64,000 nt of DNA from Candidatus Latescibacterota bacterium (GCA_965219385.1 CBDCNM010000001.1:980631-1044630); one strand, 5' to 3'; numbered from the stretch's first letter, positions 1,064 to 22,288 are shown. Translations and numbers: made by a program. Notes: generated from the sequence alone by a model not told the origin.

Positions 1064-1091
1064 ATGCCGTATAATATATTTTACGTAAATA
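1064..1091 (+). other. dif-like Xer recombination site 1
   Basis: ATGCCGTATAA-TATATT-TTACGTAAATA: 11-6-11 layout with ATAA/TTAY core resembling E. coli and B. subtilis dif. Confidence 0.7.
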
Positions 1092-1100
1092 TCTAACACC

Positions 1101-1329
1101 TCAAGCAAAACGCTTCATTCCAGCCATCTGCCTAACCGCCAACGAATCAGCAAGCGAAATAACGACTGCGTCGGACTCCTGGCCGTTCAGCAATAGCTCC
1201 GTTTCCTGTACTCGCAGCCGCAGGATGGTACGAAGGCTGAGCGCGAATTTGGGACGGTCGGGCTCAGCCTGTTGCCACGTGCCTACCAGTTCGTCGGCGT
1301 GTGCGTTCGCGTTGGGTAGGAGTCCTCAT
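1101..1329 (-). pseudogene. Possible small frameshifted ORF divergent from the recombinase
   Basis: GAAAGGAG SD then ATG at 1329 gives only 21 aa; removing 1 nt joins a 74-codon open frame (GLLPNANAHADELVGTWQ...MKRFA*). Confidence 0.35.
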
Positions 1330-1353
1330 CAGTGCGGGCTCCTTTCAAATTTG

Positions 1354-1381
1354 ACTAATGATAATTACCCTTCTAGTTAGT
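1354..1381. other. Quasi-palindromic tyrosine-recombinase-type site upstream of recombinase
   Basis: ACTAATGATAA-TTACCC-TTCTAGTTAGT; arms 8/11 self-complementary around a 6-bp spacer. Confidence 0.5.
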
Positions 1382-1477
1382 TAAATCAATATCTTGTTGA
1401 TGACAAAATTACTGGTTATGGCTATATTTAAAGTCCCTGGCACAGACTCCTCTTTTTCAGCGTTGAGAATTTCTAGC

Positions 1478-2422
1478 ATGGAAAACTTGCCTGTTGCATC
1501 ATCGGATCGCACGACACTAATTCGCACCGGTCCACTCGAACAATTTCTCGCCGGACAATTGAGCGAAAGCACCAGACGGGCCTACTTGGCCGACCTTTGC
1601 CGTTTTTTTGGCACTGATGATATTCAGCTGGACGATATCCGCTCGGTAACCTTTCAAGATGTCATTGAGTTCCGCAACCAGCTGGCCAGCCAAGGTTACA
1701 AACGCACGACCATCAACCGCAAGTTGTCCAGCCTGAAAGCCTTTTTTAAAATGATGGTCGCAACCGGCCTCATTGACAAAAACCCAGCGGATTCCACTCT
1801 GGTTCGTGGTTACAAGGTCGAGGATGCCCTGACCGGAAAAGCCATAGCCAACCAAGCGCTCAAACAGATCCTCAAGACCATCTCAGAAGAAAAAAACAGA
1901 CTGGCGCAAGCCCGTGATACGGCGATTGTTCATTTTTTGACCTTTGGCGGTCTGCGCCGTTCGGAAGTTGCCAATATAGCCTGGGATGATATCCGACCAG
2001 AAGGCGTTTTCTACCTTCTCAACCTCCCGCAGACCAAGTCCGGCGTTCCCCAGGAGATCAAACTACAACCAGTTGTCATCCACTACATGAATCTGTACCG
2101 CGAAACCCTTCTCGAAAACGGCTATACAGCACAAGGCAAAGCCTTCATAAGTCTTGCGCGCAATCAGTCGCACGGCAAGCCTCTGACGGATCAGTCGATT
2201 AACCTGATGGTTAAAAAATACGCCTTAAAAGCCGGTGTGCCCCACAACATTACCGCACATATGTTCCGTCATACCTGCTGCACGCTGGCTATTGAAGGCG
2301 GCGCCAAGCCTCAGCAGGTCCAGGCCCACTTGCGCCACAAAGACCTGAAAACAACCATGCGCTATTATGAGAACCGGGAAAAATTGACGGATAATGCGTC
2401 TGACTATATAAATTTGGGATGA
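1478..2422 (+). CDS. XerC/XerD-like tyrosine recombinase
   Basis: Catalytic R (GLRRSE), K (QTKSG), HxxR (HMFRH), H (LRHKD) and Y (TTMRY); SAM-like N-domain (TRRAYLADL, TINRKLSSLKAFF); ATG 1478 chosen over ORF start 1394. Confidence 0.92.
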   Translation: MENLPVASSDRTTLIRTGPLEQFLAGQLSESTRRAYLADLCRFFGTDDIQLDDIRSVTFQDVIEFRNQLASQGYKRTTINRKLSSLKAFFKMMVATGLIDKNPADSTLVRGYKVEDALTGKAIANQALKQILKTISEEKNRLAQARDTAIVHFLTFGGLRRSEVANIAWDDIRPEGVFYLLNLPQTKSGVPQEIKLQPVVIHYMNLYRETLLENGYTAQGKAFISLARNQSHGKPLTDQSINLMVKKYALKAGVPHNITAHMFRHTCCTLAIEGGAKPQQVQAHLRHKDLKTTMRYYENREKLTDNASDYINLG

Positions 2423-2446
2423 TTATTTGGAATTTTTTGCTGGATA

Positions 2447-2474
2447 AAGTTACATAAAAAATTTTATGCGGCAT
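2447..2474 (-). other. dif-like Xer recombination site 2
   Basis: Minus strand ATGCCGCATAA-AATTTT-TTATGTAACTT; arms 10/11 and 8/11 identical to site 1, inverted. Confidence 0.72.
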
Positions 2475-2489
2475 TATTATTTAAAAACC

Positions 2490-4274
2490 TCAAATCCGGC
2501 CAAACATCCGATCCAGCTCTGTCAATAGAATCTTCACAATGATCGGCCTCCCGTGAGGACAGACAAAAGGCTCCCTGGCTTTTAATAACCGCTCGATCAG
2601 TACCTGCATATCCTTTGAGGAAAGTTTCTCACCGGCTCGGATGGAGGTGTGACAGGCATAGGAAGCTGCCATGGCCTCTTGCAGGGTGTTCCTGATTTGT
2701 TTTTCCTCCAGAAGCTCATTGATAATTTTGCTGAAAACTTCACCTTCCCCCCAATCCTTCATTTCCACTGGGATGGATTCCACCAGGATGGTCCCAGGGC
2801 CAAATTCGCGCACGCCGAACCCAAGCCCTTTGAACAATCCCAGTGCCTCTCGCACCACTTCCATCTCCACTGAATCGAGATTTAACGTCAAGGGAAAGAG
2901 CAATTGTTGGGAGGCTGTGGCTTCGGCCTGGAATTGATCCAGGGCATCTTCAAAGCGGATGCGTTCATGGGCCACATGCTGGTCAATAATAAGGATTCCA
3001 TCCTTGATCGGCGCAATGATGTACTTGTTGTGCACCTGCCAGATAGCTGGGGCCTCCTCGAGATCCTCAAGCGCCGATTCCCCTACCTCATTCTTTTCTC
3101 CTGATTTGATGAGCTCTTCGGTGGCGGGCTTTGAAGGGGCCAGCAGGGACAAGGACAACTGATCCGTAGACTGGGCCTTCACCAGTTGAGGGCCCTTGTT
3201 TACCGACTCACCACTAGAAAAAAGAGATGAAGGCGATTCACCAACTTTTAATGGCTGAAATTCAGCCTCTGCGCCATACTTGAAAGAGGCGACCTCAGGC
3301 ATTTCCAGGGCCTTTCTAACGGCGGCTTGAATCACTTCACCCACACGTTTTTCGTCGGCAAAGCGGACCTCGCGCTTGGTAGGGTGAACATTGACATCGA
3401 TTTGCCTTGGGTCGAGGTTCAACCAGACAACAAATGAGGGGTGTTTATCCACAAGCAACCCACCGTAACCCCTGTAAACGGCCTGAATCAGGCCTTTGGA
3501 ATATACCGGCCGCCCCCTTACGATTAGAAACTGTTTGCCCCTGGAACGGCGACAGTGCGCCGGGCTGGATACAAAGACCTTGACTTCAATGCCCTCTTCA
3601 TCCAGTTCGGCTTCGTGCAATTCTTTAGAATCCACCCCCAACAAATCCCCTGCCCTTTCACGCCTTCCTCCGGGCAGCAGATTGAGGATGGTCCTGTCCT
3701 GATGCACCAAGCCAAATCCGACCCTGGGATGGGCTGCCGCCAACTGGACCATACTCTGGGTTATATAACGGGTTTCCGTTTCGACGTGGCGCAGGAACTT
3801 CCTGCGAGCCGGGGTATTAAAAAAAATATTCCGCACCGAGATGGTAGTCCCCACCGCACGTGAGGCGGCCTTCAGTTCGCGCCGGATCCCCCCCTCGATA
3901 ACCAGGTAGGTACCTTGGGCTTCTTCAGCCGGCCGGGTCTCTATGGTCATACGCGAAACAGCACCAATACTGGCCAGGGCTTCCCCCCTGAATCCCAAGG
4001 TAGAAATGCCAAATAAATCCGAGGGAGAATCCATCTTGCTGGTCGCATGTCGTTCAACCGAAAGAACCGCATCTTCGCGCACCATGCCCACTCCATCATC
4101 CACCACGGTTATAGCCTGCCTACCCCCGGCTTTCACCTCTACGCGCACCCTATTAGCCATTGCATCCAAAGCATTTTCGACCAGTTCCTTAACAACCGAA
4201 GCAGGTCGCTCAATAACTTCCCCAGCGGCTATCTTTTGTATGATATTGTCCGACAAAACCTGTATTTTAGCCAT
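2490..4274 (-). CDS. mutL: DNA mismatch repair endonuclease MutL
   Basis: IAAGEVIERPASVVKELVEN, GFRGEAL, DQHVAHER, CPHGRP. Confidence 0.97.
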   Translation of the reverse strand: MAKIQVLSDNIIQKIAAGEVIERPASVVKELVENALDAMANRVRVEVKAGGRQAITVVDDGVGMVREDAVLSVERHATSKMDSPSDLFGISTLGFRGEALASIGAVSRMTIETRPAEEAQGTYLVIEGGIRRELKAASRAVGTTISVRNIFFNTPARRKFLRHVETETRYITQSMVQLAAAHPRVGFGLVHQDRTILNLLPGGRRERAGDLLGVDSKELHEAELDEEGIEVKVFVSSPAHCRRSRGKQFLIVRGRPVYSKGLIQAVYRGYGGLLVDKHPSFVVWLNLDPRQIDVNVHPTKREVRFADEKRVGEVIQAAVRKALEMPEVASFKYGAEAEFQPLKVGESPSSLFSSGESVNKGPQLVKAQSTDQLSLSLLAPSKPATEELIKSGEKNEVGESALEDLEEAPAIWQVHNKYIIAPIKDGILIIDQHVAHERIRFEDALDQFQAEATASQQLLFPLTLNLDSVEMEVVREALGLFKGLGFGVREFGPGTILVESIPVEMKDWGEGEVFSKIINELLEEKQIRNTLQEAMAASYACHTSIRAGEKLSSKDMQVLIERLLKAREPFVCPHGRPIIVKILLTELDRMFGRI

Positions 4275-4306
4275 GGTTCAATGATTATACCAATATACCC
4301 TCTGCT

Positions 4307-4879
4307 TCACATTTCAGCCCAGAGGGCCTCACGCGCTTTTTCATAGTCTTCCAGACTGATTCTTCCTTCGCGAAACTCTTTTTCCAGCTCTTGCAGGCGC
4401 CGGCGAGGAGATCCAATTCCCTTCCGATCTTTTTGAACCTGGCTCCATAAATGCCAAAGCCCCAACCCGAACAGACCGGCTACGAAACCAACCCCGGCCA
4501 GTTCCTTACTTGTTATATCCTCACTGTCTTCATAGCCGACGGTAATGCCCTGGGACCTCCAGTAACTCACTTGTTCGGGCGGAATCTCCTGATTGCCCTG
4601 AAGAACAATAGCCTGGGTTGTCACCTCTCTGTCCTCATGGGTTAACTGAACCGGTTCTTTCAACTGGCAATTCAACCCAAATGGGGTGATCGTAATATGC
4701 TTGAGCCGACCCTCGGTACTGAAGCCTTGGAATTGCTCAGCAGTCACGGGGATTTCGGGCGAGTTGAGAAAATTCAAACCCAAAACAATAAAGAGCAATC
4801 CACCTGCCAGGGCCAATGAAAACTTTACTGGGGAACCAGAAGTATGCCCATCTTCTTTTTTACTATTCAATTCTAACAT
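4307..4879 (-). CDS. Hypothetical membrane protein (two TM helices, short C-terminal SHOCT-like helix)
   Basis: Two hydrophobic segments; C-terminal GRISLEDYEKAREAL. Confidence 0.6.
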   Translation of the reverse strand: MLELNSKKEDGHTSGSPVKFSLALAGGLLFIVLGLNFLNSPEIPVTAEQFQGFSTEGRLKHITITPFGLNCQLKEPVQLTHEDREVTTQAIVLQGNQEIPPEQVSYWRSQGITVGYEDSEDITSKELAGVGFVAGLFGLGLWHLWSQVQKDRKGIGSPRRRLQELEKEFREGRISLEDYEKAREALWAEM

Positions 4880-5777
4880 CTTTTCTCAGGACCTCTCTAT
4901 TATGCCGGGCGGATTGTTGAATCCAGTCGTGAAAAAAATGGGCTGAAACAGCTTCATCCCCGCCAAAAATGGGTGCCTGGCCAAACCGTATAACATCTCC
5001 AAAGTCCCTGTACTGCGCTTCCAAGCCTTCAGAAGACTTCAATTGATTTTGCTTGAACTCCACGGATCCATGGCTTCCGTAGAGCTGAATTATCGCCTCT
5101 TCTTGCTCGCCAAGCCCGTTCACCTGAAAAACGGCTTCCAAACCATCTTTGAATCTTAACTGAGCTACCATCACATCTTCAACCGGTCGATTGAATCCCA
5201 GGCTCTGCGACCGAGCGAAGATTGAATCGATTTCCCCAAAATACTCTAAAATCAAACATATATAGTTAAAACCGTGCAGCAAAACTACCCCTTCCCGCTC
5301 GTTCTCAGTCCACTTCTGCGGCAAGGATACCCTCAGGTCAAAAAACAAAAGCGATCCAATCTCTCTTTCCCTTAAAATACGGCGAATAGTTGTACCGAAA
5401 GACGAAAACAGAACATCGGCCACTACAGCAAGTCGGGCTCTTGATTGGCCGCACCGGGAGACAATTGTCCGTGCCTGCCGGCATGTTCGAGCCAAGGGCG
5501 AATTGCACAGGATATGTTTACCGGCTCGAATTGCTTCTTTGAACCAGAATTCGCTCTCCGATAAGGGAGTACAGAGGACGATCCCTTTTACTTCAGGATT
5601 GTTTATAGCCTCCGAATAATCCGTGGTGTCCGGAGACTGTGGAAACACTGGTTGGAGATCCTCAAATACCTTGATGACCTCAAATTCACCCAGGTTTTCC
5701 AGAGCAGATAAATGCATAGGCAAATTGCATCTTCCCAGAATGGCCAATCCACCTCCCATATCCTTGCTCATACCCAA
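4863..5777 (-). CDS. Divergent Gfo/Idh/MocA-family oxidoreductase
   Basis: DYSEAINNPEVKGIVLCTP...AIRAGKHILCNSPLA pattern. Confidence 0.65.
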   Translation of the reverse strand: MGMSKDMGGGLAILGRCNLPMHLSALENLGEFEVIKVFEDLQPVFPQSPDTTDYSEAINNPEVKGIVLCTPLSESEFWFKEAIRAGKHILCNSPLARTCRQARTIVSRCGQSRARLAVVADVLFSSFGTTIRRILREREIGSLLFFDLRVSLPQKWTENEREGVVLLHGFNYICLILEYFGEIDSIFARSQSLGFNRPVEDVMVAQLRFKDGLEAVFQVNGLGEQEEAIIQLYGSHGSVEFKQNQLKSSEGLEAQYRDFGDVIRFGQAPIFGGDEAVSAHFFHDWIQQSARHNREVLRKDVRIE

Positions 5778-5868
5778 AAATCCTTCGAATGATACGGGGG
5801 AAAAATATAATAGGGTGAAAATTATTCCTGTTGAATTTCGTCTTTGGGTTCCTCTGGTTAAGGAGGGC

Positions 5869-6807
5869 TCAAATGGTTTTTTGTTTTATACTTTGAGCCA
5901 ATCGTCCATTAAATTCACGGGCTGGATAGTATCCATCTAGGCGCAGCAAATGATTGTGAGCGATGGTTTCCGCAATAACGGTAATATTCTTACCCGGAAA
6001 CAGCGGAACGGTTATCTCTCGGATATCTACCCCCAGAATGGTATGGACGGTATCTTCCAGGCCTATTCGCTCATATTCGGCATCTTCGTCCCAGTCCACC
6101 AATTTCACCATGACTTCTACCCGTTTTTGTCGGCGGATTCCCCTGATTCCAAACATCTTCTTCACATTAATCACGCCAAGACCTCGAATCTCCATATGAT
6201 CCTGTAAAATATCCGGACAATCCCCCATGAGCAGTCCCTGGGGCTTCCGCTTAATGATCACGGTATCGTCCGCCACCAGTCGATGCCCTCTCTCCACAAG
6301 ATCCAGCCCCACTTCGCTTTTGCCTATTCCACTACGTCCGGTAAAAAGTAAACCAATCCCATGGACGTCTATCAAGGTGCCGTGGACGGTTACTTCAGGG
6401 GCAAAAAACTCTCCCAGATAAAAATGTAAAAGGTGAATAAACTTAGTGGTCCCAAATTCCGATCTGAGCAAGGGTATCCGGTACTGGTCTGACAGGTCTT
6501 TTAAATCCGAGATCAACCTCCCAGTCCCCGTCACGACCACACAAGGAAGTTCAAACTGATAAACTATCTCAAGTGCTGCCCGCCGTCGTTCCCTGGATAG
6601 GCTGCGAAGATACGCGATTTCATGGTTGCCCAAAACATGCACCCTGTTTATGGTGAATACTTCGACAAAGCCGGTCAAAGCCAGGGCTGGGCGTTGTATA
6701 TCGCTGCTGTTAATGGTGCGATCCAGGCCCTCTTCACCCGCGCTCAGCCGCAGTCCCAAATGCTTTCCATAGGTCTTTAGAAAGGTGCGAATCGAAATCT
6801 CTTTCAC
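5869..6807 (-). CDS. hprK: HPr(Ser) kinase/phosphorylase
   Basis: GRSGIGKSE Walker A, GHRLVADD, MEIRGLGVIN; start GTG 6807 inferred. Confidence 0.95.
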   Translation of the reverse strand: MKEISIRTFLKTYGKHLGLRLSAGEEGLDRTINSSDIQRPALALTGFVEVFTINRVHVLGNHEIAYLRSLSRERRRAALEIVYQFELPCVVVTGTGRLISDLKDLSDQYRIPLLRSEFGTTKFIHLLHFYLGEFFAPEVTVHGTLIDVHGIGLLFTGRSGIGKSEVGLDLVERGHRLVADDTVIIKRKPQGLLMGDCPDILQDHMEIRGLGVINVKKMFGIRGIRRQKRVEVMVKLVDWDEDAEYERIGLEDTVHTILGVDIREITVPLFPGKNITVIAETIAHNHLLRLDGYYPAREFNGRLAQSIKQKTI

Positions 6808-6811
6808 GTCT

Positions 6812-7711
6812 TTAAACCATGTTTTCCACGATGCGCCTATAGCCATCGTATCTTATTGGGGCAATTTCACCGCGCTCTACGGCCTCCCTCACCGCACATC
6901 CTGGCTCGTGTAGATGCACACAATCCCTAAATTGGCAATGCAACACCAAAGGGGCCATTTCCGCAAAATACTCGACCAGAGTGGAACGTTCTACTTGCCA
7001 AAGTCGCAGCTTTTTAATGCCGGGCGTGTCCGCTACAGAGCCCCTGGATTCTTTCAAAGGGTACAATCGCACCGCAGCCGTGGTGTGGCGACCTCGATCG
7101 TGTCTTAACATCAGGGATTTGGTCTTAATGGAAAGATCGGGATCAATTCTGTTCAACAGAGTCGATTTCCCGACACCGGAGTATCCAATGAGAACCGAAA
7201 CCCGGTCTTTGAGCACCTCCTTGAATTCATCTAAACCCACGCCCGTCTTGGCGCTGGTATAGTATACCTTGTAGCCAAGGTCCAGATAAACCTTGCCTAC
7301 CGGCTGAACCAGGTGTTCTGGATCCAGATCAACCTTGTTAATACAAATAATGGGTTCCACATCCCCCTTGTGCGCCATGACCACCGCCCGGTCGATGAAA
7401 CCCACTCGCAAAGCAGGACTGGAAGTTGCTACTACAATAATTAGTTGATCGAGGTTAACGGCTACGATTTGTTCGTAGGGCTTTGATCCACTGGCGGCGC
7501 GAGAAAACTTGGAATACCTGGGATATACCTTGTCAATAACCCCGCCCTCAGGAGAGGTGGGTTCGATTTCAACCCAGTCTCCCACGATCACAGGTGCACT
7601 ACTGGTGCGCTTACCGGCTTTAACGCGCCCCCGGAGCTGACATACCCACTGAACATCACTCACCTCTACCAGGCATTGTAATCCAGATACTCGAATTACA
7701 CGTCCCTTCAT
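6812..7711 (-). CDS. rsgA: Ribosome small subunit-dependent GTPase A
   Basis: NKVD, GYSGVGKSTL, GRHTT, DTPG, CQFRDCVHLHEPGCAV. Confidence 0.96.
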   Translation of the reverse strand: MKGRVIRVSGLQCLVEVSDVQWVCQLRGRVKAGKRTSSAPVIVGDWVEIEPTSPEGGVIDKVYPRYSKFSRAASGSKPYEQIVAVNLDQLIIVVATSSPALRVGFIDRAVVMAHKGDVEPIICINKVDLDPEHLVQPVGKVYLDLGYKVYYTSAKTGVGLDEFKEVLKDRVSVLIGYSGVGKSTLLNRIDPDLSIKTKSLMLRHDRGRHTTAAVRLYPLKESRGSVADTPGIKKLRLWQVERSTLVEYFAEMAPLVLHCQFRDCVHLHEPGCAVREAVERGEIAPIRYDGYRRIVENMV

Positions 7712-7724
7712 GGAAACCCCTGGC

Positions 7725-8447
7725 TCACTCCCCCCAGGCCAGGCGTTCAGCTGTATAGGGAGGCCACCCGGCTTGAAGTATTTTTTCCTGAGTTTGTTTG
7801 ATAGGATACTCTACCCGCAACAATTCAACATATTGACGCTCGAGATCCCATAGGGCAAAAGCGGCTCTCCAGTCGCCATCTCTGGGCTGACCTACACTGC
7901 CGGGATTAACCAGGTATTGATGATGACTAACAGCTACTTTCGAAGAAGTCAATGGCACCACTTGTCCCTGCATCTTGCAATAGATGGCCGGGTAGTGCGT
8001 ATGCCCAATAAAACTCATCCGCCAATCAAGACGCTCCATACACCAGGCCACCTGATCGTAGAGGAAAAGAGGTTCCCATTCTTCTGGTTTGATGGGATTG
8101 GCATGAGCAAAGGCGCCACCGAATTCAACTCTGCGATAAGCAAATGACCGAAGATATTCGATTTCATTGGGGGATAGGAAATCGCGGGATCTCAAAATGG
8201 TATCTCGAGCAAGAGAGTTTAGAGATTTCAAATGCCGTGTGTCCACCATGGCCTGCTCGTGATTGCCCAGAATGCACACGGCCTCAACCTCTTGCAGACG
8301 GTTGAGACAAGCGACTGGATCTACCCCGTACCCCACGGCGTCACCAAGAGAGAAAAAACGTTCAGCCCCTGCTTTTTGGGCAGCGATTAAAGCGGTTTCA
8401 AGGGCTTCTAAATTGGCATGGATATCGGCTAGCAGCGCAAGTTTCAT
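7725..8447 (-). CDS. Metallophosphoesterase
   Basis: DIHAN, LGDAVGYG, GNHE, GHTH, NPGSVGQPRDG. Confidence 0.9.
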   Translation of the reverse strand: MKLALLADIHANLEALETALIAAQKAGAERFFSLGDAVGYGVDPVACLNRLQEVEAVCILGNHEQAMVDTRHLKSLNSLARDTILRSRDFLSPNEIEYLRSFAYRRVEFGGAFAHANPIKPEEWEPLFLYDQVAWCMERLDWRMSFIGHTHYPAIYCKMQGQVVPLTSSKVAVSHHQYLVNPGSVGQPRDGDWRAAFALWDLERQYVELLRVEYPIKQTQEKILQAGWPPYTAERLAWGE

Positions 8448-8485
8448 ACCGGGTTCCCCGCTCTCCTTCTTTTTCGCAAAATCGG

Positions 8486-9424
8486 TCAGGTAAAAAGCGC
8501 GCTGATTGAGGTTTCCTGATGGATTGCCTTGATGGCGCTGGCAAAAAGCGGTGCGACCGAACACACCTGTATCTTGGAGTTTCTGCTACCTGGCGTTAGA
8601 GGAATCGTATCCGTAATTGCAAGACATTCGAGGGCTGAGTCGTTTATGTGGTTTGCCGCATCTCCGGCCAGAGTTCCGTGTACACATCCGGCATAAATCT
8701 TGCTACATCCCCCCTCTCGGACGGCCCGAGTCCCGTCAAATATTGATTCTCCTGTGATAATTTCATCATCAAAAAAAATCACATCCCTGCCTTTTACATC
8801 GCCTATGACCCCATGTACCCGCATCTGTCCATCAAGCCCCCGCCGCTTGTCAATCACGACGAGGGGCAATCCCAATCGTTTGGCATACGATTCAGCAACC
8901 TTGGCACGGCCGATATCCGGGGCGGCGGCAACACAATTTTGGAGGTCCACTCTGGAATAATAAGCGCAAATGTTGGGAACGCCACTCAATTGATCCACCG
9001 GCATTCTACAAAAACCCATGATCTGCGGACTGTGCAGACTCATGGTCAAGATGCGATCAGTCCCAGCCTCGTTGAGCAGATCGGCCATCAAGCGACCCGC
9101 AACGGAAATGCGGGGTTCGTCCTTGCTGTCGGACAAAGCATAGGGATAATAGGGTAAAACCGCGGTAATCCGTCCGGCTGAGGCATACTTTAGAGCATCC
9201 AGGGCAATGAGGAGTTCCATCAGATATTCACTCACCGGGGGGCATGAAGTCTGGATGAAAAACACATCGCACCCACGCACATTCTCGCATATTTTAACCT
9301 TGATATTCTCGTTGCTGAAACGCACAAATTCAATCTGGCCCAGCTCCAACTCTAAAGCCTCACAAATACCCCGCGCCAGTGGCCGGTTGCTCTGACCAGC
9401 AAAAACCTTAAGGGGTCCGCTCAT
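8486..9424 (-). CDS. prs: Ribose-phosphate pyrophosphokinase, paralogue 1 (divergent)
   Basis: ENVRGCDVFFIQT, RITAVLPYYPY, DKRR, DDEIITG. Confidence 0.88.
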   Translation of the reverse strand: MSGPLKVFAGQSNRPLARGICEALELELGQIEFVRFSNENIKVKICENVRGCDVFFIQTSCPPVSEYLMELLIALDALKYASAGRITAVLPYYPYALSDSKDEPRISVAGRLMADLLNEAGTDRILTMSLHSPQIMGFCRMPVDQLSGVPNICAYYSRVDLQNCVAAAPDIGRAKVAESYAKRLGLPLVVIDKRRGLDGQMRVHGVIGDVKGRDVIFFDDEIITGESIFDGTRAVREGGCSKIYAGCVHGTLAGDAANHINDSALECLAITDTIPLTPGSRNSKIQVCSVAPLFASAIKAIHQETSISALFT

Positions 9425-9520
9425 CTTTACATTCTATTCTTTTCCTAAGTGGCTAGCCCCAGAGTTATATTGGACACACGATAAGCCCTATATTTTAGGG
9501 TCGAAAGGAGGGTGTCCCTC

Positions 9521-12123: not shown

Positions 12124-12151
12124 TATTTACATAAAAATTATTATACGGCTT
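12124..12151 (-). other. dif-like Xer site 3
   Basis: Minus strand AAGCCGTATAA-TAATTT-TTATGTAAATA; both arms 10/11 identical to site 1. Confidence 0.7.
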
Positions 12152-13451: not shown

Positions 13452-13497
13452 GCCGCTCTGTACGGTTCGGGTAATGCCCTGGAGAAGATAACCAACC

Positions 13498-13755
13498 ATG
13501 CCGCGCGTGAATATAATGCTGCCCGAGAACCTTTTAAACCAGATGGACCAAGTAGCCGCTGCGGAGGACATGAATCGCAGTCAGCTGGTGCGCACCGCCG
13601 TACTCGCCTATTTCGACCGGCTTGCTGAAACCAATCAGCGCCAGCAACGCCAGAATGATATCCTGAGAGCCATGGATATTCAGGACCACCTGCGACAGAC
13701 CCATGCGCCCTGGGATGCGCTTAAAATACTACGAGACCAGCGAGAAGAAGCATGA
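13498..13755 (+). CDS. Ribbon-helix-helix (CopG-like) antitoxin
   Basis: RVNIMLPENLLNQMDQVA...NRSQLVR; overlaps the PIN gene by ATGA. Confidence 0.8.
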   Translation: MPRVNIMLPENLLNQMDQVAAAEDMNRSQLVRTAVLAYFDRLAETNQRQQRQNDILRAMDIQDHLRQTHAPWDALKILRDQREEA

Positions 13756-14180
13756 TTCGGTATGCCCTTGACACATCGGTTATGCTCCGCTGGTTTACCC
13801 CGGCCCACGATCCGGATACGGAACGGGCCCTGCGTCTGCGGGCCGAACACCTGAATGAGACGGTAGAATTGGTGGTCCTGGATCAATCCATCTTTGAGCT
13901 TATTCACGTGCTCAAAGAAAGCACCCAATTCAACCAGGAGAGCATTGCCGATACCCTTGATAGCCTGGAATTCATGCATATCCACATCATTTCTTACAGC
14001 CACGAAATCGCCAGGAAGGCAGGACAAATCGCCTGTGAATACAATATCGGCATTTATGCGGCTTGTTTTGTCGCTCTCGGAGCCCACCTGCGCTGCCAGG
14101 CTGTCACCAGCGACGAGGAATTGTACCGGAAGGTCTCCTCTCTGCCCTGGACGATCCTCCTGACCCACCTGAATTTCTAG
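13752..14180 (+). CDS. vapC: PIN-domain VapC-like toxin
   Basis: YALDTSV, IFELIH, AVTSDEEL. Confidence 0.8.
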   Translation: MIRYALDTSVMLRWFTPAHDPDTERALRLRAEHLNETVELVVLDQSIFELIHVLKESTQFNQESIADTLDSLEFMHIHIISYSHEIARKAGQIACEYNIGIYAACFVALGAHLRCQAVTSDEELYRKVSSLPWTILLTHLNF

Positions 14181-14183
14181 ACC

Positions 14184-15368
14184 CTAAATCCGCTTCAACG
14201 CCTGCTCGATATCGGCCACCAACTCATCGGCATCCTCGATACCCACTGAGTAGCGCACCAATTCGTCCTTGATTCCAATGGCCAGGCGGTCCTCCCGACT
14301 CAAATCGTAGTATGAAACCGATGCCGGATGGGACACCAGGCTTTCAACGCCCCCCAGGCTGGGGGCGATATAGGGAATCTTCAAAGCGTGGATGAAACCG
14401 CGCGTACGGGCGAGATCCCCATCAACATCAAAGCTTACCACCCCACCAAACCCCCTCATCTGCTGGACCGCGATATGGTGGTCGCCATGACTTTCAAGCC
14501 CAGGATAGTATACCTGCTTGATCTTATCCTGGCCCTCCAGATAATGGGCAATGTGTTGTGCCGTTTTGTTCTGGTGCCCAACCCGCAGGGCCAGGGTCTT
14601 CAAACCCCGGATAAGCAGATACGCCGTATTGGGATCCACCACTCCTCCCATCACTTTCTGAAAATCCTTGATGGCTGCTACCAGAGGGGCAGATCCACAG
14701 ATACAACCCGCCATGAGATCATTGTGACCTCCCAGGTATTTGGTGGCGCTGTGGATGACGAGATCCACATTGTACTCGAGAGGCCGCTGGTTTATGGGCG
14801 TGGCAAAGGTGCTGTCGATTAAAACCTTGAGTCTGTGTTCTCGGGCAAACGGCACGAGCCGTTCCAGATCAACTACGTGGAGATGAGGATTGGTCGGCGA
14901 CTCGGTGAAAATAATTCGGGTATTGGGCTGGATTGCGGCTTTTAGGGCATCAAAATCTCCCGGTTTCACAAAGCTACTCTCGATGCCGAATTTTTTGACC
15001 GTATTGCAAAACTGGGTCGTCTTGCGATAGCAATCCTCCGTGATAATCAGGTGCTGCCCACTCCTGAGCATAGCGAGCAAAGCCGTGGTTACAGCACTCA
15101 TTCCGGTGGGAAACAACAGCGCTTTTTCAGCATGCTCCAGAGCTGCAATTTTATCTTCAGCACTTTTCTGGGTGGGGTTCCCATAGCGGCCATACTCGAA
15201 GTGTTGCCGCTCTCCTGCCGTGTACTCTTCGACTTCGTCCAGGTTTTCGAACACGTAGGTAGCAGTCTGAGCAATGGGATTGGTCAGAGATTGGGCAAAT
15301 TTTATCCGCTCTTCTCCGCCGTGTACCGACTCAGTAGAAAGACCGGCAAAGCCCTTATTTTTGTTCAT
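14184..15368 (-). CDS. Cystathionine gamma-synthase-like PLP enzyme (plant-like motifs)
   Basis: YGRYGNPT, DCYRKT, ESPTNP, HSATKYLGGHND, SLGGVESL. Confidence 0.85.
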   Translation of the reverse strand: MNKNKGFAGLSTESVHGGEERIKFAQSLTNPIAQTATYVFENLDEVEEYTAGERQHFEYGRYGNPTQKSAEDKIAALEHAEKALLFPTGMSAVTTALLAMLRSGQHLIITEDCYRKTTQFCNTVKKFGIESSFVKPGDFDALKAAIQPNTRIIFTESPTNPHLHVVDLERLVPFAREHRLKVLIDSTFATPINQRPLEYNVDLVIHSATKYLGGHNDLMAGCICGSAPLVAAIKDFQKVMGGVVDPNTAYLLIRGLKTLALRVGHQNKTAQHIAHYLEGQDKIKQVYYPGLESHGDHHIAVQQMRGFGGVVSFDVDGDLARTRGFIHALKIPYIAPSLGGVESLVSHPASVSYYDLSREDRLAIGIKDELVRYSVGIEDADELVADIEQALKRI

Positions 15369-15369
15369 A

Positions 15370-16707
15370 TCAACCCTTTTCCAGCGCTTTGAGGACTGCC
15401 TGCCGGACTTTTTCATACTTTGCATTGACCTCGACGAGCCGGTTCCGATAGTTTGGTTCGACCCCAAATTCAGCAAGCCTATCTTCGTGATACCCAATTT
15501 TATAATCAGAGAACTTCAAACCGTGTGCGGTTGAAACGACCAGTACCTTATCAGTGCTTTTTACCTTTTTCTTTTGGACCAGCTTGAAAAGCGCGGCCAG
15601 AGCCACGCCAGTGTGTGGACAAGTAAAAAGACCCGTCCTATCCGCCCGAGCCGATGCATTGGCCAATTCGTCTTCTGTAGCCTGCTCGACAATGCCATCG
15701 AATTTTTGCAGGGTTCGCACCGCTCGTTCCCGGCTGACAGGATTGCCGATCTGAATCGCCGTAGCAAGCGTGGCACGGGCTTTTTGTACCTTAAAAGTTT
15801 GAAAATTATCCAGATAACTTAAATACAGGGGGTTGGCATGGGCCGCCTGGGCAACGGCAATACGCGGCAGGCGATCAATGATCCCCATTTCCTTCATTTC
15901 CAAGAACCCCTTACCTAGAGCACTCACATTACCCAAATTCCCCCCGGGAATCACGACCCAATCCGGAACGGACCAATCATCCTGCTGGACTAGTTCTATG
16001 GCTACGGTTTTCTGCCCCTCGATCCGCAGAGAATTCATCGAATTGGCCAGGTAAATATTCTCCTTATGACATATTTCCTTCATCAACTCCATACACCCAT
16101 CAAAATCCGTATCCAGATACAAGGTCAGGGCGCCATTGGCAATGGGCTGGATGAGCTGGGCGGGGGAGATTTTGTCCCTGGGCAAAAATACAAACACCGG
16201 TATTCCGGCAGCCGCACCGTAGGCTGCCAGTGCCGCCGAAGTGTCCCCGGTCGAAGCACAGGCTACAGCAGGGATGTTCTGACCTTCGGCGATCATTTGT
16301 TTAACCATCGAGACCAAAACGGTCATGCCCAGGTCCTTGAAAGACCCAGTATGACTGTTGCCACATTGCTTGACCCACAGGTCTTCCACCCCGATCTCCC
16401 TGCCGAGGCGTTCGGCCTTGAAAAGATTGCTGCCCCCCTCATACATAGAGACCACATTCGCGTCTTCCACCACAGGACAGACCATCTCCTTTTTGCCCCA
16501 GACCGAACTGCCATAAGGCACCTCGGTGCGCATATAGCGTTGGTCAAAAAGCTTCATCCAGGCATAAGCCGACTTTCGCTTCAATGCATCCATATCGTGG
16601 CGCACTTCAAGCAAACCGCCACAATTTTTACACTCGTACACAATCTCAGTCAGCGGGTACCGCTCACCTCGACAGTGCAGGCATTGAAACCAGGCTCGGT
16701 AGGCCAT
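15370..16707 (-). CDS. thrC: Threonine synthase (plant-like type)
   Basis: [40 protein letters not shown]. Confidence 0.93.
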
Positions 16708-16730
16708 ATATCTTTTCTCGGGTAGACGGG

Positions 16731-17273
16731 CTAATTCAATATACGGCGTAATAATAACTGCAGCAACAGAATATCCACGACTGTCTCAGGAAATATATAG
16801 CTTGCATTGTAGAACAGCGAATAGAGCCAGACAGGTTGTCCCTGCGGAGCCATTTGCCCCCAAAATACAATCCCGGAAATAAAATGTGCGAGAAAACGCA
16901 GGGTGTTCCCCAGGAGGACTCCGGTTATAATCTGTACTGGAAGGGCATAGGGAGCAGCTCTGGCAGCAGTTGTCCGCGGGAAACCCAGCCCTGCCATTCC
17001 GGCAAGGCCAAAAGCTATTGGGTAATCTAAAGGGAACTGGATGGGATGAATCCAATGAGGTTCAGAGATAAAATGCACCATCCCATAAACCCCACCTGCA
17101 GCTACGCCCCCTTTCCACCCATGCCTGAATGCCACAACAAAAATCGGCAGCATGTGCAGACTGATTGAGCCACCATAGGGCAAGCGAGGTACAGGCAGGA
17201 TTTTTGAAAACCCATCGAGAAGTATGGCAAGTGCTATCGCCAATGCTATTTCGCTATAAAGCCGAATATTCAT
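16731..17273 (-). CDS. thiT: ECF S-component thiamine transporter ThiT-like
   Basis: [36 protein letters not shown]. Confidence 0.85.
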
Positions 17274-17480
17274 AAATCAGCCAAAAAGACAATTTTGACT
17301 TTTCTAAACCATTGCTCCACAAGACAAAAAATCATAGAAAATTTAGGAACCCCAGTAGGATTTCGGGCGTTTAATCCAATACGAGCCATCCCGGTCATGG
17401 CTCGTATCCCTCCCTTGCGGCCAGAGGCATTTCGTTTCGCTTCTGGCCGTTTTTATACCTCTAACCTCTTGATTTATAAA

Positions 17481-18488
17481 CTAATTTAGGCGCTGAATTA
17501 TAACTATCCCCATGGGCATTTCAACAATATCGCTTACTTCACCTGTTTGAAGTTGTAAGACCGCTTGCTCAAATGGTTCTAAAAGTTCGCCCGGTCCAAA
17601 AAAACCCAAATCTCCCCCATCCTGGGCATTGGGTGCCTGAGAAAATTGATGAGCCAGCTTGCCAAAATCTTCCCCCTGCTCAAGACGCTGTAGTAAATCC
17701 CTGGCTTCGGCCTGTGTTTTCACAAGAATATAGCGCGCCCTCATCTTGCCATCCATTATAGAGCGAATCGCTTCCATTCTGAGGTTAATGGCGTGGTTTA
17801 TCAGAGGGTCTTGAGCTAGTGTTTTAGCACGGCTGTAGTAATCGAGGGACTGCCTGTATCGGGCCTGCAAAGCGTAGAGGAAAGCTATGTTGTTATAGGC
17901 TTCGACATCATCGGCGAGAACCTCTAGGACCTTGTGATAGTGGTCAACTGCCAGATCCAGCGAATCCTGTTGAGTAAAATAATAGCCCAGGAATCTGTGA
18001 GCTTGGGGATTGGCTGGACTCAATTGTAAAGCAGTATCCAGATGGGCCCGGGACTTGCCCGGCAAGCCGGCCTGCAAGTACAGGACTCCGAGCTGGGCCT
18101 GAAGCCCGGCGGATTCAGGGGCAAATGAGCGCGCCTTTTGCACATAGTGGATGGCCGAATCCAGCTTTCCACTGGCCATAAAAGCCTCGCCAATCTTAGC
18201 GAGGACGGATATCTGGCCGGGTTTTTCAATCAAAGAACGCTGCCAAGTATTCTTCGCCTTTTCAAACGCCCCAATCCGCAGATAAAACTCCCCCAGCCGA
18301 TTTAAAAACCGCGCACTTCCAGCACCTGCCTCCAGGGCCTTTTCGTACTCTTCGACTGCCAGTTCCAGGCGGCCCTGGACAGCAAAGTGATCACCCCGCT
18401 GTATGTGTTTTAAAATTTCAGGTTCCTCCTGAGCGGCCACTCCCTTCCAGGCCAGACCTAAACAGCCTAGCAGCACTATGTACAGCAT
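17481..18488 (-). CDS. Secreted TPR protein with C-terminal parvulin PPIase
   Basis: Signal peptide, TPR repeats, GEDFGKLAHQFS...GGDLGFF. Confidence 0.85.
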   Translation of the reverse strand: MLYIVLLGCLGLAWKGVAAQEEPEILKHIQRGDHFAVQGRLELAVEEYEKALEAGAGSARFLNRLGEFYLRIGAFEKAKNTWQRSLIEKPGQISVLAKIGEAFMASGKLDSAIHYVQKARSFAPESAGLQAQLGVLYLQAGLPGKSRAHLDTALQLSPANPQAHRFLGYYFTQQDSLDLAVDHYHKVLEVLADDVEAYNNIAFLYALQARYRQSLDYYSRAKTLAQDPLINHAINLRMEAIRSIMDGKMRARYILVKTQAEARDLLQRLEQGEDFGKLAHQFSQAPNAQDGGDLGFFGPGELLEPFEQAVLQLQTGEVSDIVEMPMGIVIIQRLN

Positions 18489-18515
18489 CCCAAACCTTCC
18501 TTTGTGGAGACGTAA

Positions 18516-19292
18516 CTAGGGTTCCTGACAGAGCTTGCAAAACACCTCCCGGGTAATCTCCCGGATGAGAAGCCCCTTATCCAGGCCGGATAAAGAGGCG
18601 GTCTTGGTGGAACGATCCAGGTCACAGGACGGAAGGTCGCCCACATCAAACCGCCGGCGCAGCGCGCTTACTTGTTGGGCATTGAGGGTGTTTACCGATC
18701 CAAGTTGATGGGCAACCAAGGCGATTTTGGCGAAATGTTCTACGGTTTCCATCTTGAAATGCGCATCCATGACCCCCTTTCCCAATGTCACTACCCCGTG
18801 GTTGGCCATCAACACAGCGTCGTGATCTTTGAGCAGGGGCTTCATGGGCTTGACAATATCAGGTCCTCCCGGCGTGCCATAAGCTGCCAGTGGAATCCCT
18901 CCCATAGCGACGATCACTTCGGGCAAGATACACTGAGTCAGTTCGATTCCCGCCACGGAAAAACCCGTAGCTGTAGGGGGGTGTGCGTGTACAATGGCCT
19001 GAATATCCTGGCGCATCTTATAGATCTCCAGGTGCATGCGGATCTCGGATGAAATCTTCATGTGGCCCGCGACCTGATTGCCATCCATATCACAGGTAGA
19101 AACCATGTCCTCGGACATGAAACCTTTACTGACACCTGTAGGGGTACATAGAATGCGATCCCGACCCATGCGCGCGCTAATGTTGCCGTCATTGGCCGCT
19201 ACGAAACCGCTCTGATAAATCCTTCTGCCTACTTCGCATATATCGCGTCGGATGGCATGAGGAGGGTTTGGACTCCAGGTGTCTTCTGCCAT
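18516..19292 (-). CDS. Class II aldolase with probable BMC encapsulation peptide
   Basis: GNISAR, TPTG, SSEIRMH, HAHP, ANHG; C-terminal LIREITREVFCKL. Confidence 0.88.
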   Translation of the reverse strand: MAEDTWSPNPPHAIRRDICEVGRRIYQSGFVAANDGNISARMGRDRILCTPTGVSKGFMSEDMVSTCDMDGNQVAGHMKISSEIRMHLEIYKMRQDIQAIVHAHPPTATGFSVAGIELTQCILPEVIVAMGGIPLAAYGTPGGPDIVKPMKPLLKDHDAVLMANHGVVTLGKGVMDAHFKMETVEHFAKIALVAHQLGSVNTLNAQQVSALRRRFDVGDLPSCDLDRSTKTASLSGLDKGLLIREITREVFCKLCQEP

Positions 19293-19444
19293 GTAAATCC
19301 CCTTTCAAATAGAGATGAGTTGGAGCCGGCTTGGGGGCTTGCTCCACAGCAGAGGGGGTTGCCGGTACAACAGGCACATCCCGGTGAGAGGCATGGTGTG
19401 GGGGATCGCGGACAGGGTGCGGAGGGTATCAGGTTAAGCGCCAG

Positions 19445-19726
19445 CTACTTGGTTTTGGAAATCGGCAATACGGTTTCAAGACTTTCATGAGGACGTGGAA
19501 TTACATGACTGGAGATCACCTCACCTACCTTTGCCGCAGCCAGCGCACCGGCGTCTGTTGCAGCTTTGACCGCGGCGACATCCCCTCGGACTACTGCAGT
19601 GACCAGCCCTCCACCTATTTGCTGCCACCCTATAAGTTCGACGTTGGCGGCCTTGGCCATGGCATCGGTCGCTTCGATCATAGCCACCAATCCGCGCGTC
19701 TCAATCATACCCAGTGCTTGGCCCAT
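19445..19726 (-). CDS. BMC-H microcompartment shell protein (EutM/PduA-like)
   Basis: [10 protein letters not shown]...DAMAKAANV...GDVAAVKAA...HVIPRPH. Confidence 0.96.
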
Positions 19727-19999
19727 TTGAAATTCACTTGCAACAGTCGGACTTGTAACAGATCATGCGATCTCACCAAGCCCTTCCACTGCCCTCCTTT
19801 CCTCGTAGGCATTCCAGACTAATGATAAATTTAGAAAAATAGGGGGGGGCGTATTCAAAGTCAAGATTTTATCCTCCCTTCCCCAAGTACCAGCTTGACA
19901 ATTTCAGTAAGGCCTCGCTATTTTTTGCCAGAATATGATTTGACCTATTCTAGCTTTTCATCAGACCTCAGAAGCCGTCTCAAACTTGAATAGGATGCA

Positions 20000-21115
20000 A
20001 TGTCCAGCCCAATTGGCCGTCCCGTACTTGCCTGCTGTTTTGCCTTTGTTCTTGCTGTGCCGCCCTTTCCGCTTCTGGCCGAACCCTATATAGCCTTTCG
20101 GGAGGGCTATGCCTGTAGTAGCTGTCATGTCAACCGCACAGGTGGAGGCATGCGCAATGAGTTCGGAGAGCTGTTTACCCAGACGGATATCTCCCCATTG
20201 ATGCAGGAGGCCTCCGAGAAAGCCATGGATTTTTCGCCCGAGGTGGGTACCAGCATCACCCTTGGAGCTGATTTCATGGCCGTGCACGAAATCTTCTTCC
20301 CAGTGGATGACCAGCAGGACTCCAAAAACTCCTTTGATATACCCAGTGGCAATCTGTACCTGGAGGCCCATCTGGTGCCCGAGGTGCTTTCTCTATACCT
20401 GGATGAAACTGTAACTCCGGCGGGCGCCAGCAGTCGCGAGGCATTTCTCCTGCTGCAGTCCCTGCCCTGCAGCGGCTATCTCAAAGCCGGCCGCATGCTC
20501 CTCCCCTATGGCATCCGGGTCTGGGATGACGAAACCTTTACCCGGCAGGTGACAGGCTTCAACTACGACAACCAGGATATGGGAGTGGAGGTCGGCATCC
20601 AACCTCGCAACCTGACGCTTAGCATGGCCCTTAGCAATGGGACCCAGGGAGGACGCGACAGCGACAACGATAAACAGATCTCGTCCGTGGGGTCGGTATA
20701 TCTCAATAATGTGGTTGTGGGAGGATCGTTCTCGTGGAACAAGTCGCGGGGGATAAAACGACTGGTATTCGGACCTTACGGCAGTGTAAAACTAGGGGCA
20801 CTGACCCTTCTGGGAGAGGTGGACTGGGTGCAGGACTCAGAGGAGTCGGGTGATTTTGAACAGGATCAGTTCCTCTTTTTCACCAGCCTGAATTATTGGC
20901 ACCAACACAGCGTGAATTTTCGGGTAGCCTTCGACTTTCTCAACCCCTACAAAGACATCGAAGAGGATGAAAAGAGCCGCGCTACCCTCGGGGTTCACGC
21001 CTTCCTGACTCCCTACCTGGAAGCAAGTGCCTTCTACAGGCTCAGGGACAGCATTCCCCAGGATGTGCAGGGCAACGTCAATACCTTCACCCTGGCCCTG
21101 CATTCCTTCTTCTAA
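20000..21115 (+). CDS. Monoheme cytochrome c fused to a probable outer-membrane beta-barrel (Cyc2-like architecture)
   Basis: Signal peptide, single CSSCH near mature N-terminus, alternating beta strands, terminal Phe. Confidence 0.7.
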   Translation: MSSPIGRPVLACCFAFVLAVPPFPLLAEPYIAFREGYACSSCHVNRTGGGMRNEFGELFTQTDISPLMQEASEKAMDFSPEVGTSITLGADFMAVHEIFFPVDDQQDSKNSFDIPSGNLYLEAHLVPEVLSLYLDETVTPAGASSREAFLLLQSLPCSGYLKAGRMLLPYGIRVWDDETFTRQVTGFNYDNQDMGVEVGIQPRNLTLSMALSNGTQGGRDSDNDKQISSVGSVYLNNVVVGGSFSWNKSRGIKRLVFGPYGSVKLGALTLLGEVDWVQDSEESGDFEQDQFLFFTSLNYWHQHSVNFRVAFDFLNPYKDIEEDEKSRATLGVHAFLTPYLEASAFYRLRDSIPQDVQGNVNTFTLALHSFF

Positions 21116-21134
21116 GAGAAGACAGGTCAGGCCC

Positions 21135-22229
21135 CTACATGCGAAACAGGAATTGAATTATATCTCCGTCCTGGACAACATAATCTCTTCCCTCGGTTCG
21201 GACCTTGCCTTCATCCCGCAATTGCCCCATACTTCCGGTGGTTTCCAGGTCCTTGAAAGTAGCGACCTCTGCCCTGATGAAGCCCTGTTCCATATCAGTG
21301 TGGATTCTTCCCGCCGCCTGGGTTGCCACCCTACCATGAAGCAACTGCCAGGCTTGTAACTTCTCGTTAGCCAGGGTGTAAAAGATAATTAGATTCAACA
21401 GGTTATAACCGGCCAGAACAAGCCGATCGAGACCTGTTTCAGGCAACCCCAGATCCGCCAAAAATTCCTGCCTGTCCTCAGGAGGAAGCTGGACCATTTC
21501 CGCTTCAATCTGGGCGGATATGGCTATAACCTGATCCCGGCCAACCTGTGTCCCAATTTCCGAGGCCCAATTTCCCCCCTCTCCTGCCGCCTCTTCCTCC
21601 GAGACATTGGCCACGTAGAGTACAGGTTTCGTCGTGAGGAATTGATAGTCGCGGATGGCATCCTGTTCATCAACCGCAAGTCCGAGACCGCGTACAGGCA
21701 CGCCTTGGTGCAGCCCCGCTTCCACTTTCCTGAGGGTCTCAAACTCCAGCCGACGCAGCGGATTACTTTCTGTTTGAACGATTTTTTCCAACCTCGATAA
21801 CCCATTCCCCAGGGTTGCGATATCCGCCAACATCAATTCCACCTCCACCGTCTGCATATCCCTCAAAGGATTGACCCTCCCATCCACATGGGCTACCTGG
21901 GGATCCTCAAAGCAGCGCAGAACGTGCACTAGGGCATCGGCTTCCCGCACCAGCCCGAGAAAGGCATTGCCCAGCCCTTCACCTTGACTGGCCCCGCGTA
22001 CCAGGCCGGCGATATCCATAAACTGAATACTGGTTGCGGTGCAACTCGCGGGCCTTAAAATCTCATTCAGTCGTTCCAGGCGCTGGTCTGGCACCTCGAC
22101 CACACCTACATTGGGCTCTACCGTGCAAAAAGGATAGTTCGAAGCTTGGGCGGTCCCATGGGTCAAGGCGTTAAAAAGAGTGGATTTACCGATATTAGGT
22201 AGGCCGATGATGCCAATAAAGAGTGGCAT
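21135..22229 (-). CDS. ychF: Ribosome-binding ATPase YchF
   Basis: [28 protein letters not shown]. Confidence 0.96.
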
Positions 22230-22260
22230 GGTTGCCTTTATGGCTGGTTTTTGTTGTAGT

Positions 22261-22288
22261 TACTTACACAACAAAAATTATGCGTCAT
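22261..22288 (-). other. dif-like Xer site 4 (more degenerate)
   Basis: Minus strand ATGACGCATAA-TTTTTG-TTGTGTAAGTA. Confidence 0.55.

Follow-up and report, generated by a model that had tools for sequence, protein, structure and literature searches.

How many dif sites does a bacterial chromosome carry, and what could several of them do when all point at the same gene? Bacteria are usually taught to have one dif. The question is raised by a stretch of 64,000 nucleotides from a Candidatus Latescibacterota bacterium (G000:C1:980631-1044630; this whole stretch is called the window), in which a gene for an Xer-like tyrosine recombinase is flanked by dif-like 28-mers, each built of two 11-nt arms around a 6-nt spacer (11-6-11). 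The genome consists of two contigs, C1 and C2, with 5.81 Mb (5,810,885 bases) and about 60% G+C. The original prediction, made from the window alone, was that four such 28-mers form a multi-site terminus system and flip their orientation at a lone Xer recombinase. In our analysis the array consists of six sites, three on either side of the recombinase gene, and the sites are as follows.

Window 1064..1091, + strand: inner-left site S-1, dif-like 28-mer, ATGCCGTATAA-TATATT-TTACGTAAATA
Window 2447..2474, - strand: inner-right site S+1, dif-like 28-mer, ATGCCGCATAA-AATTTT-TTATGTAACTT
Window 12124..12151, - strand: middle-right site S+2, dif-like 28-mer, AAGCCGTATAA-TAATTT-TTATGTAAATA
Window 22261..22288, - strand: outer-right site S+3, dif-like 28-mer, ATGACGCATAA-TTTTTG-TTGTGTAAGTA
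G000:C1:953692-953719, + strand: site S-3, left of the window, found by the matrix scan with a score of 33.8
C1:966809-966836, + strand: site S-2, left of the window, found by the matrix scan with a score of 26.0

The four 28-mers first proposed are all present in the window, at the positions and on the strands given for them, but the genome holds six and not four. The other two were discovered with a weight matrix of the arms only, which was trained on the four window sites and used to scan both contigs. The training sites score 34.5-37.9 and the best noise match, located on the other contig, scores 20.6; no sites beyond the six clustered ones were found by the matrix in the 5.8 Mb. The genome-wide array can be written as 953692+, 966809+, 981694+ / recombinase / 983077-, 992754-, 1002891-, with six sites in 49.2 kb. 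As expected of a terminus system, the matches cluster around the recombinase and the strand flips there, with three sites on the + strand to the left and three on the - strand to the right. Both added sites lie to the left of the recombinase on the + strand, and they obey the polarity rule that had been drawn from the window sites, according to which the XerD-like arm faces the recombinase.

A search with the degenerate pattern GNCNYATAANNNNNNWTAYGTMAA gave the same picture. With at most 2 mismatches, exactly the four sites were matched in the 64-kb window, compared to an expectation of 0.22 +/- 0.46 from shuffled sequences, and none of the 100 shuffles reached 4. When at most 1 mismatch was allowed, there were 5 matches in the whole genome, all inside the cluster, and a reversed control pattern had no match in the whole genome at the same threshold. 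Every one of the six sites has the 11-6-11 layout with inner ATAA/TTAT and the conserved XerD-type arm that characterise dif. This TTATGTAAA arm points to the centre of the array in each case, and the second (XerC-type) arm is conserved in all six sites as well. The property of dif that is missing is the single copy per chromosome, as there are six copies here.

The next question is where on the chromosome the array lies, and the feature of interest is the following.

Window 1..2500, no strand: terminus-type GC-skew switch, from the cumulative skew of C1

The cumulative GC skew of C1 climbs to about 960-980 kb and then drops. In 1-kb bins, the maximum is found at 982,000 (window position ~1370), which falls between the two inner sites (981,694 and 983,077). 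Inside the window the GC skew is +0.028 in positions 1-2000 and negative beyond. Long open reading frames to the right of the recombinase are on the - strand, and those viewed beside the two left sites are mostly on the + strand. The centre of the array is the replication terminus by the usual criteria, a call that rests on C1 and on the relatives described below, the cumulative skew of C2 being irregular. The site strands do flip across the cumulative-skew extremum, and the core of the original prediction, a multi-site terminus system, is borne out by the skew peak between the inner sites and by the polar layout kept in relatives. We regard it as very likely that this is a real polar Xer-type terminus array.

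Some compositional features of the two contigs were also recorded. About 50 kb under the array (window 1-24000, C1:952000-1004000) has a G+C content of 0.48-0.56, roughly 7-8 points below the genome value of 0.60. In C2 (4.48 Mb), the cumulative GC skew reverses several times, which suggests rearrangements or assembly joins. FtsK-orienting polar sequences (KOPS) were considered too, and the most strand-skewed 8-mers of C1 were rejected as such words, being pieces of two CRISPR arrays. With the CRISPR arrays masked, no 8-mer of C1 exceeded a skew of about 0.79 (z ~5) and none flipped cleanly at the array; no FtsK-guiding motif is claimed. The two CRISPR-like arrays lie at C1:133638-138149 (75 repeats with a 61-nt period) and C1:328785-336561 (about 109 repeats with a period of 71-73 nt).

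Is the layout kept in other genomes? A back-translated search provided 54 orthologous loci with recombinase orthologues 58-72% identical, most of the records being labelled Latescibacterota, some Gemmatimonadota and two other. These loci were scanned with a matrix derived from the six sites (score of at least 20, overlaps merged). At least one site was found in 42 of the 54 loci, with 109 sites in total. All 48 upstream sites are on the + strand and 59 of the 61 downstream sites are on the - strand, so that 107 of the 109 matches have the predicted orientation. The right inner site is situated 13-64 nt past the recombinase stop in most loci. Of the 38 loci that extend 4 kb or more to each side, terminus-type skew (positive upstream and negative downstream) was found in 33; four others have a single sign throughout, one is zero upstream and none is reversed.

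Five further chromosomes of 6.0-6.6 Mb were reached via their loci and searched with the pattern at no more than 1 mismatch. It was found that 29 of the 31 matches fall in one cluster per genome, with spans of 29.5-46.6 kb, and the reversed control matched once in all five chromosomes. In every cluster the + sites have the lower coordinates and the - sites the higher ones, with a 3+3 arrangement in four clusters and 2+3 in the fifth. The genes that adjoin the sites vary between clades. In locus L014, for example, the inner pair encloses mutL, and on the right leuS separates the inner site from the middle one. That the sites nevertheless keep their number, span and polarity argues for selection on the layout. 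The consensus of 74 sites from the relatives is ATGTCTTATAA-N6-TTATGTAAATA, and their outer sites look more variable in the second arm, although the search pattern itself restricted that arm. To judge from these genomes, the array is a conserved terminus system of one Latescibacterota family.

The gene at the centre of the array has to be considered next.

Window 1478..2422, + strand: Xer-like tyrosine recombinase, 314 amino acids from ATG 1478; open frame from TTG 1394

The likely start is ATG 1478, with the database cluster representative also having 314 amino acids. The protein matches PF00589 (1.5e-25) and PF02899 in Pfam, and it falls far below the cut-offs of the specific models, with 127.9 bits for XerC (cut-off 335), 121 bits for XerD (cut-off 329.6), 78.7 bits for XerS (cut-off 267) and 111 bits for XerA (cut-off 220). 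There are 10 PF00589 matches in the genome, including, both on C2, a canonical XerD (355.2 bits against a cut-off of 329.6) and a XerC-like gene, the product of which scores 332.9 bits, just below the cut-off of 335.15. The "lone" Xer recombinase of the original prediction is therefore alone only locally, and because XerD and XerC-like genes exist elsewhere, the terminus recombinase is, judged by its sequence, a third, divergent Xer paralogue. When it was aligned with the XerC-like protein, XerD and four orthologues, the residues R188, H289, R292, H315 and Y324 were invariant, and the protein is apparently competent for catalysis. The 292 relatives found at E <=1e-10 make up a tight family; among the best 120 of the 292, where the source names them, they are called generic recombinase, XerC or XerD. 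The nearest solved structures are distant, with real recombinase matches at E 4e-12 to 5.5e-10 (XerA-like 4a8e, Tn1549 Int and XerD), and they are of no help in assigning a site to the terminus recombinase. The genome also encodes an FtsK gamma domain and an SMC protein (1034 bits with the SMC_prok_B model, in a search that covered SMC and not ScpA/ScpB). Tus (PF05472) and RTP (PF02334) were not found in the genome, which is 94% complete.

Does the third recombinase act on the 28-mers? A different candidate site is present upstream of its gene.

Window 1354..1381, no strand: palindromic 11-6-11 element P, ACTAATGATAA-TTACCC-TTCTAGTTAGT
Window 1400..1428, + strand: promoter-like ATGACA-17-TATATT between P and the recombinase start, a consensus match only

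In the loci, P has the general form ACTAACGATAA-N6-TTATCGTTAGT, a near-perfect dif-shaped palindrome upstream of the recombinase gene; the recombinase ATG lies 97 nt beyond its end in this genome. It is unique, being the sole genome match at up to 3 mismatches, and it is present in 51 of the 54 orthologous loci (at most 6 mismatches of 22, with the next best element in the same locus having at least 7). In 52 sequences, the dyad symmetry is maintained by changes in both arms in 43 cells, compared with 22.9 +/- 3.4 after shuffling; none of 500 shuffles was as high and slid controls gave 3-18 cells, with kinship inflating these counts. Such a pattern fits a homodimer site or a hairpin. The half-site ACTAACGATAA is unlike either arm of the 28-mers. 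With three types of half-site and three recombinases, we infer that the XerC-like protein and XerD would occupy the 28-mers and the third protein would occupy P, which is probably the terminus recombinase's own binding site. Having its own unique palindromic site, the third paralogue need not be the binder of the 28-mers. Beyond the 28-mers, no extended inverted repeats were seen around the recombinase. The promoter-like element just downstream of P is the best consensus match in window 1000-2600 (10 of 12 positions).

The 6-bp centre of P is of the TGCCTG type or of its reverse complement CAGGCA type, depending on the species. When L038:9795-9828 and L032:9819-9852 are compared, both flanks are collinear (~90% identical) and the centre of P alone is flipped, which a hairpin with template switching, or a recombinase acting in an unusual way, may have caused.

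The occurrence of the array was then compared with that of the recombinase in 40 sampled genomes. An orthologue is present in 18 of the 24 genomes of the same family and in none of the 16 from three other families of the class, and every genome in which the sites were seen to form convergent pairs or clusters has an orthologue. Seven genomes without it have one site each within +/-10 kb of the pattern match, mostly at a terminus-type skew switch, and two of the seven are single-contig members of the same family. In an eighth genome (G028), where the orthologue was not found, there are two direct sites 9.2 kb apart. The correlation between recombinase and array is not absolute, and all these genomes are kin. 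Since the arms of the single sites in the orthologue-free relatives are of the types found in the array, the 28-mers are ordinary dif-type sequences. Two site arrangements stand apart. The sites at 8673 and 17917 of L070 (G028:C199), from another family, may belong to an Xer-integrated element, and the direct dif-like sites around the recombinase at L044:9748-10998 and L049:9708-10951 (~68% G+C) have the layout of an element integrated at dif.

Can the sites recombine? In three species pairs (L015/L013, L029/L058 and L017/L018), the segment between the inner sites aligns collinearly while the two flanks have traded places and turned round, and the alignment breaks at the sites. From these breakpoints, the inner sites recombined during evolution. 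The two inner sites of L017 are identical in 28 of 28 bases. Another relative keeps three direct sites with identical spacer and XerD arm, which suggests that the outer sites are poor recombination substrates and serve mainly for protein binding. It had been proposed that differing spacers prevent recombination between the sites; as a general rule this fails on the three direct same-spacer sites, on the identical inner pairs of some relatives, and on the inner segment that is inverted between species with its breakpoints at the sites. For the orientation within populations, Logan contigs of four runs from four studies, which drop rare forms, were compared with window 1-20000. Over 390-9854, the long contigs of X7, X8 and X10 agree with the window throughout, and a 1273-nt contig of a ~97%-identical strain (X1) spans S+1.

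As for the genes around the sites, all six 28-mers occupy gaps between likely genes, and four of the six extend a few bases into the longest open frames. S-3, at convergent gene ends, overlaps the + gene's stop and lies opposite that of the - gene. S-2 fills a 57-nt gap with + genes on either side. In the case of S-1, a class II aminoacyl-tRNA synthetase gene has its stop 35 nt before the site. S+1 is indeed between convergent gene ends, as originally described, the stops being those of the recombinase gene and mutL. S+2 separates a prs-type gene from a phosphoribosyltransferase (apt-like) gene, and S+3 takes up most of the gap from the stop of an NFACT/RqcH-type gene to the start of ychF. The genes within the array (mutL, hprK, rsgA, prs, ychF, aminoacyl-tRNA synthetase genes and similar) are housekeeping genes, not accessory or mobile ones.

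Several other observations concern the same region. Two ribose-phosphate pyrophosphokinase (prs) paralogues at window 8486-9424 and 12372-13328 are on the same strand, 3 kb apart, and flank S+2. At window 18516-19726, a bacterial microcompartment (BMC) shell protein gene adjoins a class II aldolase gene, which hints at a microcompartment locus near the terminus. Across window 9446-10808, the contig of the ~97%-identical strain (run X1) joins 9445 to 10809 and is without the 410-amino-acid open reading frame at 9445-10677 (no Pfam match), which may be an insertion in the reference genome.

What, then, would such an array do? The best explanation as a whole, which we put forward tentatively and with slightly more doubt than belief, is a mirror-polar array of XerC/XerD-type core sites acting as oriented Xer landing marks. 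The cell's Xer proteins would occupy the 28-mers. The inner pair would be competent for recombination, serving chromosome-dimer resolution and occasionally inverting the central segment, and the third recombinase would most likely bind P as a homodimer. The outer sites would be mainly oriented protein-DNA marks that meet a machine moving from origin to terminus on both arms. Polarity would be needed if the encounter depended on the orientation of the sites. A mirror-polar layout points to a directional partner, which may be Smc-ScpAB or forks coming from the origin, or FtsK pumping toward the terminus; it would not arise if harmful recombination were all that is selected against, because sites on the same arm are direct repeats and are prone to deletion. 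We lean slightly towards the array acting on a directional machine of some kind. That this machine is SMC is a possibility which we hold with clearly more doubt than belief. Among the candidates it would most likely be Smc-ScpAB, unloaded in the way of the XerD-bound XDS sites of B. subtilis. Unloading of Smc-ScpAB by XerD at dif-like XDS sites in the B. subtilis terminus is described in PMC11840125 and PMC11894783. Several spaced sites would be needed if loop extrusion takes large steps; PMC10945525 gives this reason for the need of several sites, and three matS sites over 78 kb already act there.

The simplest competing view is that the 28-mers are transcription-factor operators or promoters of a local regulon, and several sites do hold a TATAAT-like hexamer in short gaps upstream of co-directional genes. 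However, two of the six are at convergent gene ends, as is the best-conserved inner-right site in relatives, all six are inside 49 kb of a 5.8-Mb genome, the orientation switches at the skew maximum, and the sequence is that of dif. The convergent ends and the confinement to 49 kb rule out an ordinary operator or promoter, and we give this view next to no credence. Alternatively, the 28-mers could be the third recombinase's sites, used to invert or shuffle terminus segments, so that the locus would be a recombinase with invertible cassettes and not a maintenance device. The inner sites hug the gene, with the right one mostly 13-64 nt past its stop; arrays were seen only alongside the recombinase; the central segment is in both orientations among species; and the catalytic residues are intact. 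All this would be expected from such a system, but the recombinase has a separate, unique and dyad-symmetric P, the half-site ACTAACGATAA of which is like neither 28-mer arm, and the 28-mers match the single dif of relatives without the recombinase. Furthermore, the DNA between the sites consists of housekeeping genes, and although both orientations exist between species, as an invertible switch would have it, no switched gene or promoter is evident between the sites and no inversion joint was seen in the contigs of the four runs. We consider inversion sites of the third recombinase unlikely.

Slightly better placed, though still improbable in our view, is a set of redundant working dif sites under FtsK control, where the multiplicity would be a back-up and the polarity would be inherited, since terminus inversions preserve it. 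Geometrically, an inversion between a left + site and a right - site would keep the mirror polarity. Both arms are conserved in the 11-6-11 layout, a XerC-like protein, XerD and FtsK gamma are encoded, and the inner sites did recombine in evolution. On the other hand, a single dif suffices in the relatives without the module and in bacteria generally, and active direct dif repeats near the terminus would delete housekeeping genes; in E. coli, dif-flanked cassettes are excised efficiently. The relative that retains three direct sites, all alike in spacer and XerD arm, is difficult to reconcile with this, and so is the keeping of number, span and polarity despite changed gene positions. The polarity could also be that of an Xer-based fork trap, in which the sites admit forks from the XerC-arm side and block their exit from the XerD-arm side, like the Ter groups of Tus or RTP. 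Opposed polar groups, mostly 3+3, flank the skew switch in six genomes, the skew maximum is between the inner pair at 1-kb resolution, the recombinase gene lies between the inner sites just as tus and rtp are said to adjoin the inner Ter, and with Tus and RTP not found in the 94%-complete genome the role would be vacant. But trap-free bacteria commonly show a sharp skew switch at dif too, so that this feature does not discriminate, most bacteria are without any fork trap, and we are not aware of any tyrosine recombinase that acts as a polar barrier to a helicase. We judge a fork trap less likely than any of the alternatives above except the operator. A broader version has Xer proteins on the six mirror-oriented sites acting as one-way gates, orientation-dependent barriers that confine the end of replication, stop SMC, or both; it is doubtful to us, though ahead of the fork trap proper. 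Equally doubtful is its extension, in which the dedicated factor may be the terminus-encoded third paralogue and the whole would be a bacterial counterpart of Tus-Ter and convergent CTCF, evolved from the dif machinery.

We therefore rank XDS-like SMC handling first, followed by redundant dif, inversion sites of the third recombinase and an Xer-based fork trap. Several points count against the oriented landing marks that we prefer. The XDS described by Karaboja et al. in 2021 are reportedly XerD-specific, with a degenerate second arm and without need for XerC, whereas the second arm is conserved here. Arrays are found only in recombinase-bearing genomes, which a purely XerD-based mechanism leaves unexplained. 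In 12 of the 54 loci, from some genera, the matrix detects no flanking sites although the recombinase and P are there. The GC-rich loci L044 and L049 have direct and not inverted flanking sites. The contigs of the four runs show a single orientation of the centre and no joint at any site, as far as contigs, which lose rare forms, can tell. Finally, the relatives are kin, so the counts overstate their independence.

To our knowledge, the only extra Xer sites described so far are the XDS of Firmicutes, and a limited open-access literature search returned no polar chromosomal dif-like array, for Latescibacteria or otherwise. What comes together here, in a distant uncultured phylum, is a strictly polar, mirror-symmetric set of full dif-type sites with conserved number and span, together with a third Xer paralogue that has its own site and a centre that is invertible in evolution. 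If the polarity is functional, Xer proteins would be direction-sensing marks for SMC, FtsK or forks, and terminus insulation outside the model organisms would become testable with defined sequences and three proteins. The clustered, inward-pointing dif-like sites also provide a signature that can be searched for in other phyla.

Compared with known systems, the array is closest to the XDS of B. subtilis in having several dif-like terminus sites with the XerD-type arm best conserved. In published accounts, the B. subtilis sites are Xer-bound and handle origin-derived Smc-ScpAB, and those here are known as sequence only. In contrast to XDS, the sites here are full 28-mers with a conserved second arm, are strictly mirror-polar, typically 3+3 within about 45-50 kb, and are accompanied by a third recombinase and a palindromic site. 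With XerCD/dif, as outlined in PMC5357621, the array shares the 11-6-11 core, XerC- and XerD-type arms, the skew switch and the encoded XerC-like protein, XerD and FtsK gamma; it differs in having six copies instead of one, an extra paralogue in the centre, and a centre bounded by an inverted pair.

The Tus-Ter system of E. coli and the RTP-Ter system of B. subtilis likewise have opposed polar groups that flank the terminus. There the gene of the binding protein reportedly adjoins the innermost sites, and the recombinase here would be the candidate binder; unlike in those systems, no Tus or RTP homologue was found and the sites are recombinase core sites. The single-recombinase modules XerS/difSL and XerH/difH (PMC5357621) resemble the locus, where the recombinase gene is paired in one terminus module with what looks like its cognate site, P, at 97 nt upstream. 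However, the XerC-like protein and XerD are also kept here, the recombinase reaches 78.7 of 267 bits for XerS and 111 of 220 for XerA, and the 6-bp spacer and near-perfect dyad symmetry of P are further differences. In the pdif modules of Acinetobacter plasmids and in the integrative mobile elements exploiting Xer (IMEX) at dif (same source), multiple XerC/XerD-type 28-mers bound DNA segments too, but here the segments are housekeeping, sites on the same arm are all direct instead of alternating, and the array is mirror-symmetric and centred on the terminus. PMC12322038 names CTCF as a blocker, and the last comparison is with the convergent CTCF sites of vertebrates. These stop cohesin, an SMC complex that extrudes loops, and as an opposed pair of oriented sites they delimit a domain. 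The resemblance is no more than an analogy between unrelated proteins, and the machine at the Latescibacterota terminus would come from outside the bounded region.

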